Shown piece by piece: positions 7,854 to 17,639 of a stretch of 64,000 nucleotides of DNA. Location of the stretch: positions 544,001 through 608,000 of the forward strand of contig CAXXVZ010000005.1 in assembly GCA_963678065.2 (NCBI GenBank). The letters are read 5' to 3'. The notes under the pieces are model-generated. The model was not told the DNA's origin, did no database searches, and saw only the letters and a program-made list of their open reading frames with translations. The position numbers and the translations under genes are program-made. The first letter of the stretch is position 1. Every line of letters starts with the position of its first letter. The stretch comes from Treponemataceae bacterium. Lineage in GTDB: Bacteria > Spirochaetota > Spirochaetia > Treponematales > Rectinemataceae.

Positions 7854-8526
7854 AAGAGGGAAAATCCCTCTGCCCCAGGACAGCCCTCACGAGCGGCATT
7901 ACAGCGCCGGCGAAGAGATCGCGAACGCCGTCAGCCACGGCACGGGCGCCATACTTTCCGTGGTTGCCCTCGTCCTGCTCGTCGTCGCCGCCGTCCTCAA
8001 GGGAACCGCACTGACTGTCATGGCCTATTCGGTATTCGGCGCATCCCTCGTCATCCTGTACACGATGTCGACGGTCTACCATTCCCTGTCGCGAACGAAG
8101 GCCAGGCGCGTCCTCGAGATTCTCGACCACTCTTCGATCTACATTCTCATCGCCGGAAGCTACACGGCGTTTTGCCTCTCCGCCCTGCGCGGTCCCCTCG
8201 GCTGGACGATCTTCGCCGCGAGCTGGACCCTCGCCCTCATCGGCATCGTCCTGAAAGCTCTCTGGTTCGAGCGCTTCCCCCGGCTCTCGGTCGTCGGTTA
8301 CCTCGCGATGGGCTGGCTCATCGTCTTCGCCTTCAAGCCGCTCGCTCTGGCGCTGCCGGGCAGGGCCCTCGCGCTCCTCGTGGCGGGAGGACTCGCCTAC
8401 AGCGTGGGAACGATCTTCTACGCCCTGAAACGCGTCCGCTGGTTCCACGCGGTCTGGCACCTCTTCGTCCTCGCGGGCTCGACCTGCCACGTCCTGTCGG
8501 CGATTTTCGCGCTGACCATGCGGTAA
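7843..8526 (+). CDS. Hemolysin III / PAQR-family membrane protein
   Basis: EEIANAVSHG, STVYH, LDHSSIYILIAGSYT, HAVWHLFVL; about 7 TM segments. Confidence 0.92.
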   Translation: MSTERGKIPLPQDSPHERHYSAGEEIANAVSHGTGAILSVVALVLLVVAAVLKGTALTVMAYSVFGASLVILYTMSTVYHSLSRTKARRVLEILDHSSIYILIAGSYTAFCLSALRGPLGWTIFAASWTLALIGIVLKALWFERFPRLSVVGYLAMGWLIVFAFKPLALALPGRALALLVAGGLAYSVGTIFYALKRVRWFHAVWHLFVLAGSTCHVLSAIFALTMR

Positions 8527-8665
8527 GGCTGCAACGCGTTGATGCTCTATCCAGCAGGCCCATTTTGCGGAGCGAGGATGACGAGGCACTCTGTTGCGAG
8601 ATCGGTATGCTCGGGGATTGCCGATCGTGGATTTGTCCAGTCGTCGAGCACGGCCTCGAGAAGTG

Positions 8666-9253
8666 TTATTTCAGGTCTATGGCGATGGAATCGGATGTAC
8701 AGACGATGCCGACGCAGCCGATGATCGGCGGATAACCACTTCGCAACAGGAGCGAACTGTAGCCCGTAGTGTATTGTCTGGTGTGCGGATCTTCATATGC
8801 TGTTCTCGTCTTGAGCTGTCGGAGGGCTCCGTTTTCCACGACCCAGTTTCTCATGTTTGCGGACCCTGTTTTGTTCGTTCCCGAAGCCCAGAGCGTCCTT
8901 GTGGCGAGTGCATCGGAAGTCTCGGTCCACGCCGATGCCGGGGAAGTCAGTTTTGTTTCCACATCGACCAAAGCGAAGAGAACGATCATGGAATCGCGGT
9001 CGATGAGCAACATGGTCGTCGTATCGATGAATTCGATATCGAAGCGCCACCCTGCGGGCATGTTTTTTACACGGACGTTCAGAAAATACTGGATAGTATT
9101 CCCTCCGTACAAGATGGCTGCATCGTGGCCGATGGTTTCATACGGATCGAGTACATGGAAGAATACTTTTTTAGACTGGACAACCGAATCCTTGACTTGG
9201 TCCACAAACCATCGCCCCAGTCTATCCTGCTCGTCGGGCTCTCCGGTGCCACG
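8666..9253 (-). CDS. Lower-GC hypothetical ORF, probably a 5'-truncated gene fragment
   Basis: 179-aa ORF from GTG 9205; frame stays open upstream to a stop at 9254-9256; no evident RBS; abuts the mrr remnant. Confidence 0.35.
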   Translation of the reverse strand, partial: RGTGEPDEQDRLGRWFVDQVKDSVVQSKKVFFHVLDPYETIGHDAAILYGGNTIQYFLNVRVKNMPAGWRFDIEFIDTTTMLLIDRDSMIVLFALVDVETKLTSPASAWTETSDALATRTLWASGTNKTGSANMRNWVVENGALRQLKTRTAYEDPHTRQYTTGYSSLLLRSGYPPIIGCVGIVCTSDSIAIDLK

Positions 9254-9276
9254 TCAAGGAAAGAGCGAACATGCTG

Positions 9277-9503
9277 CTTTTCGAGGAGCTCGTCAGAAAG
9301 GTTCTCGGTAAGCTTTTGGTAGCCGTACTCGAGAGCTTCTTCCGGCGTCGAATGTACAGAGTGCTCCTCCCCCTGATCCTCTATAGCCCTCTTCTGAACT
9401 GGTTGGAAAGCTTATCGACTGCCTCGGCCATGCTGTGCTCTTCTCCATCGGAGGCGAAGACCAGAAGGGGCAACATACAGGATTGGTAGTCGGGGATGGC
9501 CAC
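9277..9503 (-). pseudogene. mrr: Mrr (type IV restriction endonuclease) remnant
   Basis: RBS AAGGAGG then GTG 9503: (M)AIPDYQSCMLPLLVFASDGEEHSMAEAVDKLSNQF, stop at 9381. A shifted frame gives STPEEALEYGYQKLTENLSDELLEK. No catalytic domain follows. Confidence 0.8.
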
Positions 9504-9517
9504 AGGAGCCTCCTTCT

Positions 9518-11167
9518 TCACTTCCCTTTCTTCGGCTTTGTGACCTCTGCCTGGCTAACCGCGGGCAGCAGTGGCAGCCCGAGCTCGGCGAGGAACTCGT
9601 TGTGCTTCTTTGTGGCATCGGCAATCGTGGCGTCCAGGGCCACGAGCTCGGCATGGGTCGCGACGAGGTCGATCTCCTCCTCGGCCACGGCGGTGCTCAC
9701 ATAGCGAGAGATATTAAGGTTGTAGTCATTGTCGGCTATCTCCCCCATGGGGACGCGGCGGGAGAAGCGCTCCTCCTCCGTCCGGAACTGATAGGCAGAA
9801 AGAATTTTTTCGATGTGCTCGGGGAGGAGGCGGTTCTGGCGCTTGCCCTTCTCGAAGAGCTCGGCCGCGTTGATAAAGAGGAGGTCGTCGGGCTTTTTGC
9901 ACTTTTTGAGCACGAGGATGCATACGGGAATGCCGGTGGAGAAGAAGAGGTTGGCCGGCAGGCCTATCACCGTGTCGATGTTGCCATCGATAAGAAGTTT
10001 ACGCCTGATCCGCTCCTCGGCCCCGCCGCGGAAGAGGACGCCGTGGGGCAGGATGATTGCCATGCAGCCTTCGGTGGCAAGGAAGTGGAAGCCGTGGAGG
10101 AGGAAGGCGAAGTCGGCCGCAGACTTGGGCGCGAGGCCGTAGTCCTTGAAGCGGAAATCCTCTCCCAGGGCCTCGGTAGGCTCCCAGCGGTAGCTGAAGG
10201 GCGGATTGGCGACCACCGCGTCGAAGAGCATCTTCTTGGCCGGGTTCTGTTCAGCGAGGATGCCCCAGTCGTTGAGCAGGGAGTCGCCGTGGTGGATCTC
10301 GAACTCCGAGTCCTTGACCCCGTGCAAGAGCATGTTCATCCGCGCCAGGTTGTAGGTGGTGATGTTCTTCTCTTGGCCGTAGATCTTGCCCAGGCCGTGG
10401 GGGCCGAGGCGGCGGCGCACGTTGAGAAGGAGGGAGCCCGATCCGCAGGCGAAGTCCAGGACCTTGTCCAGCTTCTTCTTGGGGCCCAGAGCTGGCTCCT
10501 GGCTGTCAAGGGTGACGATGCCCGAGAGGATGCTGGATATCTGCTGGGGCGTGTAGAACTCGCCCGCCTTCTTACCCGAGCCCGCAGCGAACTGGCCGAT
10601 CAGGTACTCGTAGGCATCCCCCAAGATGTCGCTGGAGGTCGAGAACTGAGCTATGCCCTCGGCCACTTTCGTGATGATGGTGCAGAGCTTGTCGTTCCGA
10701 TCCTTGTAGCTCCGGCCAAGTTTCTCCGAGTCGAGGTTGATCTCGGAGAAAAGGCCCTTGAAACTGCTCTCGAAGGACTCGTTCTCGATATAGCGGAAGC
10801 CGGCCTGTAGGGTCTTGAGGAGCTCCCCGTTCTGCTTGCGGGCCATCTCGGAAATCGAGCTCCAGAGGTGCTCGGGCCGGATCACGTAGTGGATCTTGCG
10901 CCGCAGCTGGGCTTCGAAAGCGTCGACGTCGCCGGGGTTAGCCTCGTACCAGCGGCTCAAGGGAGGGAGGCTCAATTCCTCCTCGATCTTCGGATAGTCC
11001 CGCCCGAGCTCCTTTTTAGCGGCAGCCTCGTAGTTGTCAGAGAGGTAGCGGAGGAAGAGGAAGGAGAGCATGTAGTCCCGGAAGTCGTCGGCGTTCATGG
11101 CGCCCCGGAGCTGGTCGGCGATGGACCACAAGGTGTTGCCGAGCTCGCGCTGGTCTTTATCGTTCAT
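9518..11167 (-). CDS. hsdM: Type I RM methyltransferase subunit M
   Basis: LWSIADQLRGAM, GEFYTP, DFACGSG, ANPPF, PHGVLFRG, YNLNISRYV. Confidence 0.97.
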   Translation of the reverse strand: MNDKDQRELGNTLWSIADQLRGAMNADDFRDYMLSFLFLRYLSDNYEAAAKKELGRDYPKIEEELSLPPLSRWYEANPGDVDAFEAQLRRKIHYVIRPEHLWSSISEMARKQNGELLKTLQAGFRYIENESFESSFKGLFSEINLDSEKLGRSYKDRNDKLCTIITKVAEGIAQFSTSSDILGDAYEYLIGQFAAGSGKKAGEFYTPQQISSILSGIVTLDSQEPALGPKKKLDKVLDFACGSGSLLLNVRRRLGPHGLGKIYGQEKNITTYNLARMNMLLHGVKDSEFEIHHGDSLLNDWGILAEQNPAKKMLFDAVVANPPFSYRWEPTEALGEDFRFKDYGLAPKSAADFAFLLHGFHFLATEGCMAIILPHGVLFRGGAEERIRRKLLIDGNIDTVIGLPANLFFSTGIPVCILVLKKCKKPDDLLFINAAELFEKGKRQNRLLPEHIEKILSAYQFRTEEERFSRRVPMGEIADNDYNLNISRYVSTAVAEEEIDLVATHAELVALDATIADATKKHNEFLAELGLPLLPAVSQAEVTKPKKGK

Positions 11168-11517
11168 TGCAGTGCTCCCAAGGCAGTTGCTTCTTCAAGC
11201 CCTAGCTCGGTGCGGACGAACAGGGGTCGGGCGGCCTGGTCGATATGGGCGCGGAGGGGAGTGTAGGCGATCGAGTTGTAGCTTTTTACGTCCACCGAGA
11301 TCGACAGACTGCTCTCCCGGAACAGGGTGCTCAAGCGGGCGCAGAGAGGGTCATCGACCTTGCCGAAAAGCACGAGGTCGATATCGGAATTGGGGCGATA
11401 GGTCCCCTGGGCGCGGGAGCCGAAAACGGAGACGGCTTCGATTTTATCCCCTGCCTGGCCCAGAATTTCTCGGATAATGGCGCGATCCTCGCCGCTGAGG
11501 CCGTAGCTATCGGTCAT
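11164..11517 (-). CDS. Minimal nucleotidyltransferase (MNT, antitoxin-type)
   Basis: 117 aa, FGSRAQGTYRPNSDIDL (GSx10DxD); ATGA overlaps with the HEPN gene and hsdM. Confidence 0.9.
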   Translation of the reverse strand: MTDSYGLSGEDRAIIREILGQAGDKIEAVSVFGSRAQGTYRPNSDIDLVLFGKVDDPLCARLSTLFRESSLSISVDVKSYNSIAYTPLRAHIDQAARPLFVRTELGLEEATALGALQ

Positions 11518-11936
11518 TCGCCCTCGCCCATGTCCTTCGCCATGAGGAAATCGTAGAGCTCCTCGAAGGCGGAGAGGTAGCCAGCCTTGATATCGGCGAT
11601 CACCTGCTCGAAGACCTTGATGTCGTAGGTGTGGGACATGAGGTTCCGTGCATCCAGGGCCTTTTGCCAGACCTCGCCCTGACGAATGACACCCGCCTCG
11701 AAGGCGCTCCTGATGACTGTCCGAGGGGTGACCTGGTCCAAGACCAGGCCTTCGCTCTCCAGGTAATCCTTCAAAGTCTTCCAGGCGAGCTCGGTGCTGT
11801 ACTCGAAGCGCTGGATCAGGCCTTCCTTCTCGAGCTGAGAAAGAGGCTCTTCCTTGTCCACCGCCTCGCGCAGGAGGGTAAAGGCTCGGCGATAATTGGC
11901 GAAGCGGTACTTCCATCTGGGAGTCGGGTCGCTCAT
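11514..11936 (-). CDS. HEPN protein (HI0074 / nucleotidyltransferase substrate-binding family, toxin-type)
   Basis: GLIQRFEYSTELAWK and RNLMSHTY (Rx4HxY). Confidence 0.9.
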   Translation of the reverse strand: MSDPTPRWKYRFANYRRAFTLLREAVDKEEPLSQLEKEGLIQRFEYSTELAWKTLKDYLESEGLVLDQVTPRTVIRSAFEAGVIRQGEVWQKALDARNLMSHTYDIKVFEQVIADIKAGYLSAFEELYDFLMAKDMGEGE

Positions 11937-13075
11937 GGATGATTCGTCTCCTTCGTGCCACTATTGTATACGCTGCTCATCGATCGCGCAGCTCCGTCCG
12001 TGTCGTCTGCGAAAAGCTCGGGATCGAACGGATAGCGGTCCAGGAAGTCAGTGAGGATCCTCCTGAAGTACTCCTTGTTCTCCTCCAGCATCTCCTGGGG
12101 CTCGTAGAGTGAGTAATTGCCATGGCTGAGGATGTTGACGATCCTCGAGAACACGGTGCCGTCCGGATCGTCGTCGCCGCGCTTTAAGCAGGCCGAGAAG
12201 TTCTCGTAGCCGTGGAAATGCGCCGTCTTCTCAAGGATACTCCGTAGGACATTGAAATGATAGGTATAGAGCTTCCCAGCCTTGGCGGCACGGAAAAGCT
12301 CTTGGAGCATAGCGACGTGGTAGAAGAAGGGCGTTTCGTTCGTGGACTTGAGCGAATACTCTCCCGATGCCTCGGAATGGTCGAGAAAGCAGGACTCGGT
12401 CTGCTTCTTGTGCCTGAGCTCGTTCCACATCACATTGAAGAAGAGGGCGTGATGGGAGGAGATCACGAAGCGATGGCCGTCCCTGTGGGCCTTCAGAAGC
12501 TGGGCGAGGTCGCTCGCCACGGCGATGGCGTTGTTGTCGTCAAGGGAGGATATGGGATCATCCACATAGATGTATTTGACCCAGGCGTAGTCGGCGACTC
12601 CTTCGAGCGCCATCTTGCAGATAGCCAGGAAGAAGCACCAGATGAAGATGTTTTCCTCGCCCCGGGAGATCTTGATGTCCTCCGAGTCGTCCCGGTAGAA
12701 GGAGACGAACCACTGATCATAGTCGATCCGGAAGTTGAAACTCGCATAGCGCGATAGGTACTCACCGATCCTCTCCTCAATATTGATGTCCGCGATGCCC
12801 TTGAAGAAGCGCGATCCTGAGTTGATCCGCAGCCTGCGCGCGCTGTCGCCCTCGAGGTCGTTGTCCCAATAGAAGAGGTCCTCGGTGTAGGCGTTGAAGT
12901 AGAGAGTATCCCGAGCCTCCCCTCGCTTCCCCTCGTCCTTGAAGGCCATGGAGAGCCGAGTCTTGCCCGTGCCGTTGTAGGCGTAGATAAGGAGGAACTT
13001 CTTCTCCTCGAGGACAACGCGGAGATGGGATGCGAGGTCCTCGATGGTGGGATATTTGGTAATGGGGTCGCTCAT
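11933..13075 (-). CDS. prrC: PrrC-type anticodon nuclease (ABC-ATPase + HEPN)
   Basis: YAYNGTGKTRLS, PrrC box YFNAYTEDLFYWDND, SRGEE signature, YVDDPISSLD, H-loop, C-terminal LRSILEKT...SRIVNILSH; lies inside an hsd operon. Confidence 0.88.
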   Translation of the reverse strand: MSDPITKYPTIEDLASHLRVVLEEKKFLLIYAYNGTGKTRLSMAFKDEGKRGEARDTLYFNAYTEDLFYWDNDLEGDSARRLRINSGSRFFKGIADINIEERIGEYLSRYASFNFRIDYDQWFVSFYRDDSEDIKISRGEENIFIWCFFLAICKMALEGVADYAWVKYIYVDDPISSLDDNNAIAVASDLAQLLKAHRDGHRFVISSHHALFFNVMWNELRHKKQTESCFLDHSEASGEYSLKSTNETPFFYHVAMLQELFRAAKAGKLYTYHFNVLRSILEKTAHFHGYENFSACLKRGDDDPDGTVFSRIVNILSHGNYSLYEPQEMLEENKEYFRRILTDFLDRYPFDPELFADDTDGAARSMSSVYNSGTKETNHP

Positions 13076-14421
13076 CGATCGGCCTCGGCGGCGGAGGGGA
13101 AGAGTCCCTGCATGAGGCCCTTCTTGTAGGTCTTGAGTTTCTCGATCTGAGCCGCCTGGGCGACGATGAGATCGTCGAGGGAGGAGAGACAGGAGGATAT
13201 CTTGATTTGTTCATCATACGATGGACGGTATAATGAGAAAGACCGGATCTGGGCAAAGTTTAATCCCTGTCTGTTCCCACCAGCCTGGAAACTATCGATT
13301 TGCTTCTGCCCAATTTGCGATAATAAGAACTGATTTAGGAAATAAGGATTTAGTGCGTGTTCCTTAGTGCGAATTATACAGACATGTTGATTAACATTGC
13401 CGCCATGTATTCTTGAATCCGCAACTGCGCTCCTTCCAATAGAGGCGCCGGTTATATTTAACAGGACATCTCCTTCTGTAACTTCAGTTGCTGAGAATGT
13501 TGAATGCGTAGCCTCGTCAATATTCACTACATCATCAAGAATCAAATTCCCCCAACCAACATTCTGGCTACGGATGAATGGCCTCCCACTTCTTTTGTAA
13601 TTCACCTCGCCGCCGAGGGGTGTAATACCGCTACCGACTTTTACAGTCAATCGACCAAGTTCATTCTCATCCCACTCCCCGGCATCCCTGAACTCCGGGA
13701 AACGCAGCCTCGGCACACTCTCTCCCTCCGCTGGGAAGAGCTGCTGCATGAGGCCTTTCTTGTACTTCTTGAGGGCATCGAGCTTTTTCGAGTGAGTGGC
13801 TATGAGAGCATCGAGGGATGAGAGGCAGGAGGCGATTTTTAGCTGCTCTGTTTTGTTCATCGGGTAGATAACATTTGTTTTATTTGCATTCTCAATCGTA
13901 TACGTTCCGACTGTCCCGATACCGGCAGCTTTAATTATTTGTTGTTGAATAAAGTCGCTAAGGAAAAGCATTAGCAAAAACGATCCAAGAATTTCATGTT
14001 CATCGTTCTGAAGCCAAATGATATTGCCGTCTTTAAAATAGAAGCGATCATGCAGTTTCACTAAATATGGAATACCAATTGAGCCAACTCCCGTAACTAG
14101 TAGATCACCAGCTTTTATTTCTCCACTCAGGTTAGTATTCACTTGATATAACTTTTCACTGATATATAGCGGGGAGATTCTTTCTCCGTTATTTAGGGCA
14201 ACTAACTCACGGGCGCGATAGAATGGCACCCCCTCCTTTGCCCAATCAGCTTCGTAAATTCGTTTGCACGAAGTTATATTCAGAACCTGTCCAAGATATT
14301 TCTCTTCCCACTCCCCCGCATCCCTGTATTCCGGAAAACGTAACCTAGGCACGCGCCTACCCGCATGCTTCGCCTGGGCGCGCGGCGGACTCGCGCGTAC
14401 GAAATCGCCTTTATTTCTCAT
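13072..14421 (-). CDS. hsdS: Type I RM specificity subunit S with two TRDs
   Basis: Duplicated VPRLRFPE(Y/F)RDAGEW and EQxKI.SCLSSLD.LI...KKGLMQ.LFP; AT-rich TRDs. Confidence 0.95.
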   Translation of the reverse strand: MRNKGDFVRASPPRAQAKHAGRRVPRLRFPEYRDAGEWEEKYLGQVLNITSCKRIYEADWAKEGVPFYRARELVALNNGERISPLYISEKLYQVNTNLSGEIKAGDLLVTGVGSIGIPYLVKLHDRFYFKDGNIIWLQNDEHEILGSFLLMLFLSDFIQQQIIKAAGIGTVGTYTIENANKTNVIYPMNKTEQLKIASCLSSLDALIATHSKKLDALKKYKKGLMQQLFPAEGESVPRLRFPEFRDAGEWDENELGRLTVKVGSGITPLGGEVNYKRSGRPFIRSQNVGWGNLILDDVVNIDEATHSTFSATEVTEGDVLLNITGASIGRSAVADSRIHGGNVNQHVCIIRTKEHALNPYFLNQFLLSQIGQKQIDSFQAGGNRQGLNFAQIRSFSLYRPSYDEQIKISSCLSSLDDLIVAQAAQIEKLKTYKKGLMQGLFPSAAEADR

Positions 14422-17377
14422 ACGCCGCCAGTCCCGAGATGTCCCGCCCACCCGCAATCTTGTGCAGGTAGGGCGCGAGGTCGTTCATGAGGCTCAGCTC
14501 TTTCTGAGTCCTGGCCTTCCAGCCCAAGTCGAGGGGGGCGAGAAGCTCGCTCAGAGTCTCGCCGTCGAAGATCATGCGGGCCATGATGCCCTCCACGAAG
14601 GTCATAAATGAAGCCGGGTCGAGGCCGTGTTTTTGGGCCATAACAGCGAGAATTTGGGCTTCCTTCTCGACCTTGAAGGCCTCGTAGCCCGTGCGGATCT
14701 CCTTTTCGTTCAGCGCCTCGCCGGCCTTGAGAGTCCGTATGTACTCGGCTATATCCTCGCCCTCGCCTGCGAACTTGGAGTCGGCCTTGATAATGCCGAT
14801 GAGCTGATCCCGAGTCATGCTCTGCTTGGTCGGCGCGGCCTGTGTGTAGTTCGAGATGAGACGCATGATGTAATCGTAGTCGATGAGGGCCGAGGCGAAG
14901 AGAACGAACTCGAAGTCCAGCTCCTGCGCTCCCACGATCACCTCGTCTGTCCTGCCCCGCTCCTCCCGCATGCGCTGGGCAGTCTCCAGGTACACCCCCC
15001 GGAATCCCTGGAGCCGATCGGTGGAGATCGCGCCTTCGATCTCCGCTTTTTCCTTGGAGCCGAGGTGGGTGTACTGGTCGAGCTGGGTCTTGTGGCGCTG
15101 CACTTCCTTGAAGAGGTTGATGAACTGGGCTCGGGCCTCGTCGCCCTTGAGATTGGGCACTTCCTCAGGGAGGCTCTTGAGGCCCTGGGAGGCCATGAAC
15201 TCGTCCAGGGCGGCCACCGCCGTCTTGAGCTTCCCGATCACAGCGGGGGCCGGGTCGACTAGCCAGATCTCCTTGGCCCGCTCCGTCGCTTCGCCTGAGA
15301 AGAGGGTTATGGCCTCGTCCACTTCCTTCTGCTGGCCTCGGAAGTCCAGGATGTTGCCAGCGGGCTTCGTGTCGTTGAGCACCCGGTTGGTGCGAGAGAA
15401 GGCTTGGATGAGGCCGTGGTACTTGAGGTTCTTGTCCACATAGAGGGTGTTGAGGTACTTCGAGTCAAAGCCCGTGAGGAGCATGTCCACAACGATGGTG
15501 AGGTCGATCTTCTTCTCCCGGGGATAGTCCTGATTCGAGTACTGCTGGTCCTTTATGCGCTTCTGAACGTCTTGGTAGTAGAAGTCGAAGTTGTTTATGT
15601 CGTGGTTCGTACCGTAGTGCCTATTGTATTCGGCGATGATGGCCATGAGGGCCGCCTTTTTCTTGTCGGGCTCCACCTCGTTGTCAGCCTTCTCTTGGGG
15701 CAGGTCTTCCTGGATCTGCTGCACGTCCTTGTTCCCCTCGGCGGGGGGCGAGAAGACGCAAGCCACGCCCAGTGGCCGGAAGGATGGATCCTTGGCCGCG
15801 CGCTCGGCCTGGACTGCCTTGAAGAGAGAGTGGTACGCGATGGCGTCGTTGATCGAGGCAGTGGCGAGGAGGGCATTGAACTTGCGGCTTCCGGTGGAGG
15901 CGTCGTGCTTGTCCAGTATCGCCTCCACGACCGCCTTCTGGGCCAGCGCCTCGCCGGGCTTCGGCGCCCCTTCGCCCTCGCTCTTGTAGTAGTCCACCCG
16001 GAAGCGTAGCACGTTCCGGTCCTCTATGGCGTTGGTGATGGTATAGGCATGGAGGCACTTCTGGAAGATGTCGTCGGTGGTCCGGTAAGAGCCCTCCTCT
16101 CCCTCGAACTGCTTGTAGCTTGCGTTCGCGTCGAAGATGGGCGTGCCGGTGAAGCCGAAGAGCTGGGAGTTGGGGAAGAACTCCTTAATGGCTTTGTGGT
16201 TCTCCCCGAACTGAGAGCGGTGGCACTCATCGAAGATGAACACCATGCGCCTCTCGCGCAGGCCCTCAAGACGCTCTTTGTACTTGCGCGTGCTCCCGCC
16301 CTCCAGGGCTAGGCCGAGCTTCTGGATCGTGGTTACGATGACCTTGTTCGCGTAGTCGTCGGAGAGGAGGCGCCGCACCAGGGTTTCGGTGTTCGTGTTC
16401 TCCTCGACGCAGCCTTCCTGGAAGCGGTTGAACTCCTCCCGGGTCTGGCGGTCCAGGTCCTTGCGGTCCACAACGAAGAGGCACTTGTAGATGTCGTCGT
16501 TGTCCTTGAGGAGCGTCGAGGCTTTGAAGGAGGTAAGGGTCTTGCCCGAGCCGGTGGTGTGCCAGATGTAGCCGTTGCCCCGGTTCTGGTGGATACAGTC
16601 CACGATGGCTCTGACTGCGTAGATCTGGTAGGGCCGCATCATAAGGAGCTTGCGCTCACTGGCCACTAGAACCATGTAGCGGTTTATCGTCTGGCCGAGC
16701 GTACACTTGGGGAAGAAGCTCTCGGCGAAATCGTCGAGCTGGACGATTTTGCGGTTCGTCTCGTCGGCGAACTGGTAGAGAGGGAGGAACTTCTCGTCGG
16801 CGCCGAAGGAGAGGTGCCGCTCATCGTTGTTGGCGAAGTACCATGTGTCGGTACGATTTGACACAATGAAGAGCTGCATGAAGCAGAGGAGGCTGTTCGT
16901 GTAACCGTTGCCCACCTCCTTCTTGTAGTCGACGATCTGCTGCATGGCCACCCGGGGCTGGATGCCCAAGGCCTTGAGCTCGATCTGCGCGAGGGGCAGA
17001 CCGTTTATGAGGATGATCACGTCGTAGCGCTGGTTCGAGTTCTTCGTGTTGATGTGGAGCTGGTTCACCGCCTCGTAGCTGTTCTTGCACCAGTCTTTGA
17101 GGTTCACCAGCGAGAATTGCAGGGGTGTGCCGTCGTCCCGCATAAAGGTGTTGTACTCCCGGAGGCGGCTGGCCGAAGCGAAAACGTCGGGGTCGACGAT
17201 CTGGTCCAAGAGGCGGGCGAACTCGGAGTCCAGGAGCTTCACGCGGTTGAGCGCCTCGAACTTCTCCCGGAAGTTGCGCTCAAGGGCTTCGCGGTCGCGG
17301 ATTTCCGGGCGGTAGTCATACTTTAGGTCAGTAAGTTTCGCGATAAAGGCTTGCTCGATCTGGCTTTCGGTTGTCAT
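14411..17377 (-). CDS. hsdR: Type I RM restriction subunit R
   Basis: DVIILINGLPLAQIELK, WHTTGSGKT, DECH, FTGTP, MLLTGFD, QAFSRTNR. Confidence 0.97.
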   Translation of the reverse strand: MTTESQIEQAFIAKLTDLKYDYRPEIRDREALERNFREKFEALNRVKLLDSEFARLLDQIVDPDVFASASRLREYNTFMRDDGTPLQFSLVNLKDWCKNSYEAVNQLHINTKNSNQRYDVIILINGLPLAQIELKALGIQPRVAMQQIVDYKKEVGNGYTNSLLCFMQLFIVSNRTDTWYFANNDERHLSFGADEKFLPLYQFADETNRKIVQLDDFAESFFPKCTLGQTINRYMVLVASERKLLMMRPYQIYAVRAIVDCIHQNRGNGYIWHTTGSGKTLTSFKASTLLKDNDDIYKCLFVVDRKDLDRQTREEFNRFQEGCVEENTNTETLVRRLLSDDYANKVIVTTIQKLGLALEGGSTRKYKERLEGLRERRMVFIFDECHRSQFGENHKAIKEFFPNSQLFGFTGTPIFDANASYKQFEGEEGSYRTTDDIFQKCLHAYTITNAIEDRNVLRFRVDYYKSEGEGAPKPGEALAQKAVVEAILDKHDASTGSRKFNALLATASINDAIAYHSLFKAVQAERAAKDPSFRPLGVACVFSPPAEGNKDVQQIQEDLPQEKADNEVEPDKKKAALMAIIAEYNRHYGTNHDINNFDFYYQDVQKRIKDQQYSNQDYPREKKIDLTIVVDMLLTGFDSKYLNTLYVDKNLKYHGLIQAFSRTNRVLNDTKPAGNILDFRGQQKEVDEAITLFSGEATERAKEIWLVDPAPAVIGKLKTAVAALDEFMASQGLKSLPEEVPNLKGDEARAQFINLFKEVQRHKTQLDQYTHLGSKEKAEIEGAISTDRLQGFRGVYLETAQRMREERGRTDEVIVGAQELDFEFVLFASALIDYDYIMRLISNYTQAAPTKQSMTRDQLIGIIKADSKFAGEGEDIAEYIRTLKAGEALNEKEIRTGYEAFKVEKEAQILAVMAQKHGLDPASFMTFVEGIMARMIFDGETLSELLAPLDLGWKARTQKELSLMNDLAPYLHKIAGGRDISGLAAYEK

Positions 17378-17639
17378 ACGCCAGCAACCTCAATGACGTC
17401 TTTTATAATATTGCCAACGCAGCCAATGGTAACTTCAACCGCATTATCTGCTGACAGCGGATACTTCATGGTATGCATTGCGCTAAGTCCTTTACTAATA
17501 AAGCATCATGAGGAACGCGTTCGAGCGACATGGTACCTCAGAAACCGGCGGGGAGCAAGATGACTTGTTCCTGAATCTTGATCCCGAACCAAGCGTTTCA
17601 ATGTTGGCGGTCAGGGCGAGATGATGCGACGCCCGGCCG

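Follow-up and report, generated by a model that had tools for sequence, protein, structure and literature searches.

We analysed a window of 64,000 nucleotides (nt) from contig CAXXVZ010000005.1 of a Treponemataceae bacterium (assembly GCA_963678065.2, positions 544,001 to 608,000) and focused on an intact type I restriction-modification (RM) operon of the R-S-prrC-M family, in which a HEPN toxin gene and a minimal nucleotidyltransferase (MNT) antitoxin gene are inserted before hsdM. The six open reading frames (ORFs), all open and all on the minus strand, are listed below by window position.

17377-14411, minus strand: hsdR, type I restriction subunit, 988 amino acids (aa); TIGR00348 at 398 bits (cut-off 285), PADLOC REase_I at 1122 bits.
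14421-13072, minus strand: hsdS, with two target-recognition domains (TRDs), 449 aa counted from ATG; PF01420.
13075-11933, minus strand: prrC, ABC-ATPase plus HEPN, anticodon-nuclease family, 380 aa; PADLOC PrrC at 461.6 bits, E 4.7e-139.
11936-11514, minus strand: HEPN, HepT-type toxin of the HI0074/PF08780 subfamily, 140 aa; PF08780 at 141 bits, TIGR01987 at 97 bits, above cut-off.
11517-11164, minus strand: MNT, MntA-type minimal nucleotidyltransferase antitoxin, 117 aa; PF18765/PF01909.
11167-9518, minus strand: hsdM, type I methyltransferase, 549 aa; TIGR00497 at 383 bits (cut-off 243), DFACGSG and NPPF motifs.

The genes hsdR and hsdS have 11 nt in common, and the remaining four junctions are ATGA overlaps. 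The ORF coordinates thus bore out the order and overlaps proposed in a sequence-only reading of the window, and NCBIfam, Pfam and PADLOC models together with motifs bore out its gene identities; the PADLOC check that it had suggested recovered both PrrC and HsdR. Family matches and motifs also agree with its claim of two separate HEPN-type RNase genes, the predicted ones being prrC and the HepT-like gene. All six genes were single-copy in the host genome, and the catalytic motifs were intact in every operon gene checked. HsdR carried its nuclease, Walker A and DECHR motifs at residues 117, 273 and 383, as a nuclease and superfamily 2 translocase should, while the S-adenosylmethionine-binding and NPPF motifs of HsdM and the two TRDs and conserved repeats of HsdS were those of a type I RM system. 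The GC content of hsdS was 37-46% in the TRD stretches compared to 55-58% in the conserved parts. The internal HsdS repeats were the only meaningful ones in a repeat scan of the window, and the repeat and tRNA scan revealed no terminal repeats and no tRNA gene within it. Promoter and terminator predictions stayed at chance level (3 vs 2.8 expected; 11 vs 8.9), with no internal promoter better than chance. The starts of prrC and HEPN (11915-11940 and 13054-13079) were alike over 26 nt at 81% identity, which may be chance.

The HEPN protein contains the motif RNLMSHTY at residues 97-104 (RX4HXY, with Tyr104 as the predicted acceptor), and the MNT protein contains GSX10DXD, here GSRAQGTYRPNSDID, at residues 33-47. 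A class I HepT/MntA system is defined by a PF08780 or PF01934 toxin with a PF01909-clan MNT and the motifs RX4HXY/GSX10DXD (PMC7641770; papers are cited here for the available parts of their text). The window has an adjacent PF08780 toxin and PF01909-clan MNT with both motifs; by family and motif matches, the pair is therefore a predicted class I HepT/MntA module of the HI0074/HI0073 subfamily. The nearest solved relatives were those of Legionella (8XDJ for HEPN, E 5.5e-24; 8XEH/8XEO for MNT, E 2e-4), in which the RNase site is a Mg ion bound by Q44/E47 and the AMP acceptor is the motif Tyr (PMC11586414). The window HEPN has Q42/E45, which align with this Q44/E47. Against the MntA equivalog NF047752 (Shewanella-type), the window MNT scored 35.7 bits, below the cut-off of 60. 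Relatives in the host's own family and phylum were at most 53% identical, compared to up to 87% for metagenome proteins, which points to horizontal arrival of the pair. No HEPN relative was found in viral contigs, and 131 plasmid records carried distant HEPN relatives, all below 60% identity.

We assessed the recurrence of the arrangement in the best 80 of 527 metagenome HEPN loci, only 38 of which had 500 nt on both sides. The closest of these 80 (L088) carried hsdR-hsdS-prrC-HEPN-MNT up to the contig end, and L092 carried hsdR-rhuM piece-hsdS-PIN gene-HEPN-MNT-hsdM, with no prrC. Run X11, from a related strain, retained the window order on a single contig over 11053-15215, with 59 differences over a 2141-nt stretch running from hsdM into the 3' end of hsdS and with both HsdS target domains swapped for unrelated stretches of 437 and 573 nt. 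The sequence-only reading had made its case depend on conservation of the arrangement and had suggested a synteny search; the arrangement is not a one-off, as it recurs in L088 and run X11. In a HEPN tree of 232 rows (238 minus 6 identical) and 128 columns, with many unresolved forks, the window HEPN fell in a clade of 9 members (support 97), 4 of them RM- or prrC-linked and 5 unlinked in the available DNA. The similarity of HsdM correlated weakly with that of HEPN (Mantel rho 0.20), and HEPN with MNT at 0.49.

Genome G1253 retained the last ~82 prrC codons as a 3' stub followed by HEPN-MNT, and hsd genes were absent within 16 kb. The following deletion was common to runs X6 and X9, which represent near-identical strains from two studies:

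12222-17134, no strand: stretch lost in near-identical strains, 4907 nt, with 6-nt microhomology at its ends (12222-12227 and 17129-17134).

The joints ran from 12221 to 17129 in run X9 and from 12231 to 17139 in one contig of run X6, so that hsdS was lost completely, hsdR for the most part and prrC as far as codon ~284. The assembled contigs, of depth 4-10, retained HEPN-MNT-hsdM at ~99% identity; no indel was listed for the pair, whose reading frames are likely intact. The evidence says that the pair does not need the RM system or PrrC, because 5/9 clade members stand without hsd genes in the available DNA, G1253 holds only a prrC stub next to the pair, and the X6/X9 deletions spare it. Natural deletions that keep the pair also argue against a toxin caged by HsdS/HsdR in the window lineage. 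Together with the TRD-swapped alleles, they show how cassettes are exchanged at this locus and how a toxin-antitoxin (TA) pair outlasts the system it rode in with. Fragments of hsdM adjoin two otherwise standalone pairs (L109:1086-1832 and L127:6949-7608) and are possibly scars of lost RM operons.

These deletions bear on the proposal that the pair is an addiction module, which would maintain the RM island in a population through the death of any cell that has lost it. Such a hard-to-lose element would outlive the RM genes, as the pair does in G1253, X6 and X9; the hsdM fragments at L109 and L127 suggest the same, and the pair depends on the operon promoter, given that no internal one exceeded chance. 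However, the same deletions drop hsdR, hsdS and prrC while keeping the pair, which leaves these genes unprotected and argues against addiction, and the R-S-prrC-M family is widespread in phyla and plasmids without the pair. A covalently silenced toxin would also make a poor post-segregational killer, yet modification is reported to be incomplete in Legionella (PMC11586414). The suggestion in the sequence-only reading that an addiction module stabilises the RM system thus found no support in the natural deletions, and we consider it distinctly improbable.

The backbone of the operon was ordinary. A scan of GTDB genomes confirmed at least 568 PrrC relatives, of which the best 80 loci were analysed. 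The order R-S-prrC-M was present in 68/80, and S-prrC-M, with hsdR not seen in the available DNA, in 8/80; in the other 4/80, hsdS or hsdM was not seen in the available DNA, and prrC was flanked by both in 76/80. R-S-prrC-M is therefore the standard form of this family, which occurs without the pair in many phyla and on plasmids. Neither tblastn nor an iterated profile detected HEPN or MNT in the best 80 PrrC loci (0/80), so the RM system with PrrC does not need the pair. ATGA-type -4 overlaps were found in relatives without the TA pair at 41/65 hsdS/prrC and 42/69 prrC/hsdM junctions. Because such overlaps are a family habit, that between MNT and hsdM is unremarkable; in L092, moreover, the pair stops ~19 nt before hsdM without overlap. 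A special translational coupling of the methylase to the antitoxin, as the sequence-only reading had proposed, was rejected on these grounds.

The window PrrC showed the ABC motifs AYNGTGKT, SRGE, DDPISSLD and SSHH (Walker A, signature, Walker B/D-loop and His switch), which were conserved across an alignment of 85 rows (one locus entered twice). The PrrC catalytic triad is Arg-x3-Glu...His (PMC2610378). In the window this corresponds to R278, E282 and H318, which were invariant (85/85), and the gene is embedded in a type I operon, as expected of PrrC. PrrC is described as an anticodon nuclease that stays latent until anti-restriction proteins release it (PMC12707154, PMC3632139); by analogy, the restriction complex likely keeps the window PrrC latent, as a backup that cuts tRNA. 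The motif RIVNILSHGNY noted earlier at its HEPN end is present, and it had led to the speculation that the MNT also AMPylates PrrC and helps to keep it latent. The genes are adjacent, a Tyr lies near the catalytic His, and the order prrC-HEPN-MNT recurs (L088, L432 and X11). However, the motif reads R-x6-H-G-N-Y with Tyr321 at H+3, not RX4HXY, and this Tyr is kept in 81/85 rows; it is thus a feature of PrrC rather than an RX4HXY acceptor. Among the 85 aligned PrrCs, 80 come from loci without MNT, and L092 holds the pair without prrC. Modification of PrrC by the MNT therefore appears highly improbable.

We then quantified how often HI0074-type genes are linked to type I systems, scoring a locus as linked if its 1.5-kb flank contained hsd or prrC genes; related loci are not independent in these counts, so that Fisher tests on them serve as description only. 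Linkage was found in 8/17 loci in the order of G350 (Methylobacter) and in 1/25 in the G352 phylum (Desulfocapsa). The G351 class (Thiothrix) had 4 linked loci among its best 30, including one linked by a prrC stub only, while the host's own phylum had 3 among the best 29 of 88 and the host's own family 0/11. When 401 genomes from the G688 class (Flavobacterium) were searched starting from MNT, 3/67 loci were linked (flanks 1.5-3 kb). Pooled, 19/179 loci (~10%) were linked to type I genes, compared to a rough 0.5% by chance. Among controls in the G350 order (30 best loci each), DUF86-type HepT was linked in 5/30 and ParE in 0/30. The RM-embedded pairs had hosts in three HsdM lineages (at most 31% identity), and different HEPN clades occupied the same slot within a lineage. 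A single origin of the embedded pairs was rejected on account of these three lineages and several HEPN clades.

In a reverse survey, we inspected 60 of 124 HsdM-type matches (450-630 aa, taken in listing order) from 71 genomes, 53 of them with at least two hsd genes; two tandem copies were covered by a neighbour's region, and 112/119 cargo ORFs were scanned, the 7 left out being PrrC. The cargo of these 60 type I loci comprised YhcG (10), Fic (9), PrrC (9), RhuM (4), VapBC (4), HI0074-type HEPN-MNT (4), HipBA (1) and Xre-RES (1). Junctions of the 80 PrrC loci held RhuM, YhcG, Bro-N, a PIN toxin, an IrrE-like protein, SMC with Schlafen, a DEAD helicase and transposases. The slot is thus a general cargo site, with MNT-HEPN among its favoured passengers. 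Genes embedded in type I RM operons have been described and a multi-layer defence proposed (Payne et al., bioRxiv 10.1101/2024.01.29.577857), and PrrC has been reported with RhuM/Fic in R-M context (PMC3710099). Several other cargoes were observed. Antitoxin-first MNT-HEPN pairs (DUF86 type, one HI0074 type) were located within or next to type I operons, in several cases flanked by hsdS and hsdR (L437, L438, L439, L441, L436). A DEAD-box helicase of 1080-1140 aa recurred within type I operons (L017:2720-5965, L027:2729-5968, L455:8889-12287, L477:8618-12046), three times between hsdS and prrC. An 880-aa SMC-like ATPase with a protein bearing the RecG C-terminal domain was found between hsdR and hsdS (L029, L043, L066), accompanied by Schlafen in 2/3.

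These frequencies also bear on whether the pair is a neutral passenger, with no role in phage defence and carried along when hsdS cassettes are exchanged. As such a view would expect, 160/179 HI0074-type loci had no type I gene in the examined flank and insertion sequences occupied the same slots; no paper on phage protection by HepT/MntA was found among those listed. Embedding at ~10% against a rough 0.5% by chance, and the absence of ParE from the same slots, speak for more than passive carriage, and most embedded genes in the survey of Payne et al. were neither mobile-element nor housekeeping genes. We regard neutral carriage as quite unlikely. The addiction, passenger and guard accounts overlap, and the likelihoods stated here for them should be read with this in mind.

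A different association emerged from long MNT relatives. A profile of 27 MNTs identified 737 proteins of at least 225 aa among 8000 scored, and the best 120 of the 737 were inspected. These included 104 MNT-HsdS fusions and 1 HEPN-MNT-HsdS fusion, with the MNT always N-terminal, and GSX10DXD was present in all 120, a retention towards which the profile search itself is biased. Junctions lacked Met in 75/98 scorable fusions, and the main cluster of 66 showed a linker-free join followed by different target domains. Nine fusions in genomes (L310, L314, L315, L433, L434, L435, L467, L475, L482) formed hsdM-HEPN-MNT::hsdS operons in two HsdM lineages, each with a HEPN gene directly upstream (9/9; 8 intact, 1 broken in L475). 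On an MNT tree of 96 rows picked for diversity, 37 of them fused, 16 changes between the fused and free state were needed, at least 6 of which were forced by well-supported branches. The AlphaFold model of the fusion P0170 was confident across the junction (pLDDT 93.3, pTM 0.86); one part matched HsdS structures and the other the Legionella MNT, with no PDB match among those listed covering both. Long HEPN relatives numbered at least 22, including one with an HsdM N-terminal domain, in a search that missed the triple fusion and is hence incomplete.

The fusion proteins P0123-P0239 are annotated merely as subunit S, and the PADLOC HsdS model PDLC03138 already includes the MNT segment. No paper describing MNT::HsdS fusions, or type I operons that carry HI0074-type pairs, was found by a search that left most subscription journals uncovered, and the supplements of Payne et al. 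may list such cassettes; PMC3710099 lists HEPN-T as clustered with R-M and HEPN-M as fused to methylases, and MNT::HsdS is not listed in its available text. The fusions are frequent, evolved repeatedly and have apparently gone undescribed although the architecture sits in databases. When plasmids were searched with a fusion query, the MNT part was matched by none of the 25 records listed out of 27. The window MNT itself is not fused: it is a separate 117-aa ORF before hsdM, and no fusion was seen in the window HsdM lineage. A complex prediction for the window MNT and window HsdS scored 0.01 and was informative neither way. Further unusual forms comprised two distinct, tandemly arranged HEPN-MNT pairs following hsdM, with HsdS fused to the MNT of the second pair (L467:2119-4922); the triple fusion P0189 (HEPN-MNT-HsdS, 628 aa); P0244, in which an HI0074-type HEPN is joined to the N-terminal domain of HsdM (376 aa, 18 member sequences); and, as a second recurrent MNT fusion, MNT at the N-terminus of a beta-CASP metallo-beta-lactamase RNase of ~570 aa (P0168, P0219, P0240).

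The fusions give substance to the idea of an RM guard, in which MntA would be tethered to or stabilised by the methylase complex, so that AMPylation stops and the HEPN RNase is freed once the RM system is disabled or lost, as with PrrC or the Ronin system. In a broader form, HepT/MntA would be a guard layer recurrently recruited by type I RM systems, its antitoxin built many times into the HsdS N-terminus (hsdM-HEPN-MNT::hsdS-hsdR); the activity of the RNase toxin would then depend on the condition of the restriction complex or on its ATP consumption, and the window would represent an unfused stage stacked with PrrC. Fusion to HsdS in 105/120 of the best long relatives with the motif kept, HI0074-type genes directly upstream of all genomic fusions, the repeated changes of state, a seamless Met-free junction kept across different TRDs, the confident model of one predicted fusion and the scarcity of long HEPN relatives (22, one fused to an HsdM N-terminus) are all in keeping with it. 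Against it, no fusion was seen in the window HsdM lineage, where MNT precedes hsdM rather than hsdS, and loss of HsdS/HsdR leaves the pair in place. With the order M-HEPN-MNT-S, fusion takes a single step, the loss of a stop codon, and HsdS may merely put up with the result; the broken HEPN gene upstream of the L475 fusion indicates that a fused MNT can be leftover baggage. Motif retention is subject to the search bias mentioned above, and the missed triple fusion P0189 leaves the asymmetry between MNT and HEPN fusions only indicative. AMPylation being covalent, release would probably need new synthesis or a de-AMPylase. Near-obligate hsd linkage, as expected of an RM guardian, was not found: 19/179 loci were linked, 5/9 clade members were unlinked in the available DNA, and the pair outlasts the hsdR/hsdS deletion. 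We therefore judge a guard role at the window locus unlikely, and view its broader form with similar doubt.

Taken together, these results indicate that the pair is probably a self-contained TA cassette in a known cargo slot, co-expressed with restriction but not gated by it, and thus a separate self-silencing RNase module. By analogy with EcoprrI, HsdRMS would restrict unmethylated DNA, and PrrC would be freed once a phage anti-restriction protein disables the restriction complex. HepT-type toxins are described as RNases neutralised by Tyr AMPylation (PMC7641770, PMC11586414). As in the Shewanella and Legionella HepT/MntA systems, MntA would oligo-AMPylate Tyr104 of HEPN using ATP, and unmodified HEPN dimers would cut RNA, probably at the Mg site of Q42/E45. 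The toxin may be unmasked when AMPylation lags, through low ATP or loss of MntA, which would provide a second layer of translation arrest triggered independently of PrrC; an ATP-sensor idea for toxin release is cited in PMC13000451. The pair moves as exchangeable cargo, using the slot that conserved hsd genes flank.

Several observations weigh against this interpretation. MNT-HEPN pairs are tied to type I operons above the level of a generic TA system (8/17 and, for DUF86, 5/30, against 0/30 for ParE, all in one order; kin not independent). MNT is fused to HsdS in 105 of the best 120 long relatives and became so repeatedly, a pattern which suggests that a physical link has been under selection in other lineages. 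Among the unlinked members of the window HEPN clade, L089 has full flanks and the other four have only 81-436 nt upstream. Of the listed sequence differences, 340 are undisplayed, so that a stop codon in the TA genes of the deletion strains is possible. Finally, the deletion strains retain hsdM, and dependence on HsdM is excluded by G1253 and standalone copies only.

Taken by itself, the window offers one more cargo-loaded type I operon, with known parts in a known kind of slot. If the guard layer were true, an abundant HEPN-MNT family would gain a defined anti-phage trigger, and HsdS a new class with an enzyme domain. MNT::HsdS fusion would tie the two defences, restriction and toxin pair, together, and with such loci one can test directly whether the restriction machinery is monitored by a type VII antitoxin.

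Two further features surround the operon:

9202-9503, minus strand: mrr-like decayed remnant in two frames, directly after hsdM; Mrr_N at E 1.3e-5 on 9503-9384, below the family cut-off.
8527-17625, no strand: probable extent of an inserted island, between convergent hlyIII-like and racemase-like genes; the evidence is weak, a single X9 contig joint from 8526 to 17626.

The second-frame piece of the remnant, which gave no Pfam match, is presumably Mrr-like as well. The short side of the X9 joint (8526 to 17626) is only 30 letters, too little to rely on, and the GC content of the probable island lies below that of its flanks. No empty insertion site was detected at E 1e-60 among 68 family genomes with the flanking racemase-like gene as probe. 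Inside the probable island, a 179-aa ORF (8666-9205, minus strand, 51% GC) had no Pfam, PADLOC or NCBIfam match, and a contig of run X11 skipped 8584-9072. A contig of run X9 departs from the window at 17576, and we take the letters beyond this exit to resemble a tRNA 3' end. A heavily decayed R-S-prrC-M operon was present in genome G029 of the same family (L443), at a site without the window's flanking genes.

The locus resembles four known systems. As with the embedded genes of Payne et al., its cargo lies between hsd genes in the same orientation; the main text of that work has 0 occurrences of 'MNT' and of 'nucleotidyltransferase', and the window MNT weakly matches its candidate PDC-S09 (E 5e-9). 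With the class I HepT/MntA type VII TA systems (Legionella 8XDJ/8XEH; H. influenzae HI0074/HI0073), it shares RX4HXY, GSX10DXD, the Q/E pair and a toxin gene placed first. It differs from them in that the pair is embedded in a type I RM operon, that the window MNT lies under the NF047752 cut-off, and that relatives of this MNT fuse the antitoxin to HsdS. The E. coli EcoprrI/PrrC system has the same ABC-ATPase motifs, triad and embedding in a type I hsd operon beside hsdS, whereas the window order is R-S-prrC-(cargo)-M, and PrrC identity to loci of order M-S-prrC-R, L444 among them, is only 36-38%. Ronin, reported as an hsdMS-caged toxin whose RonA is a 61-aa membrane toxin (bioRxiv 10.1101/2023.04.06.535777), likewise has a toxin gene tightly linked to hsdM/hsdS and served as the model for the guard reading. 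However, RonA is described without an antitoxin of its own, whereas the window toxin has a dedicated, predicted enzymatic antitoxin and occurs without hsd genes.

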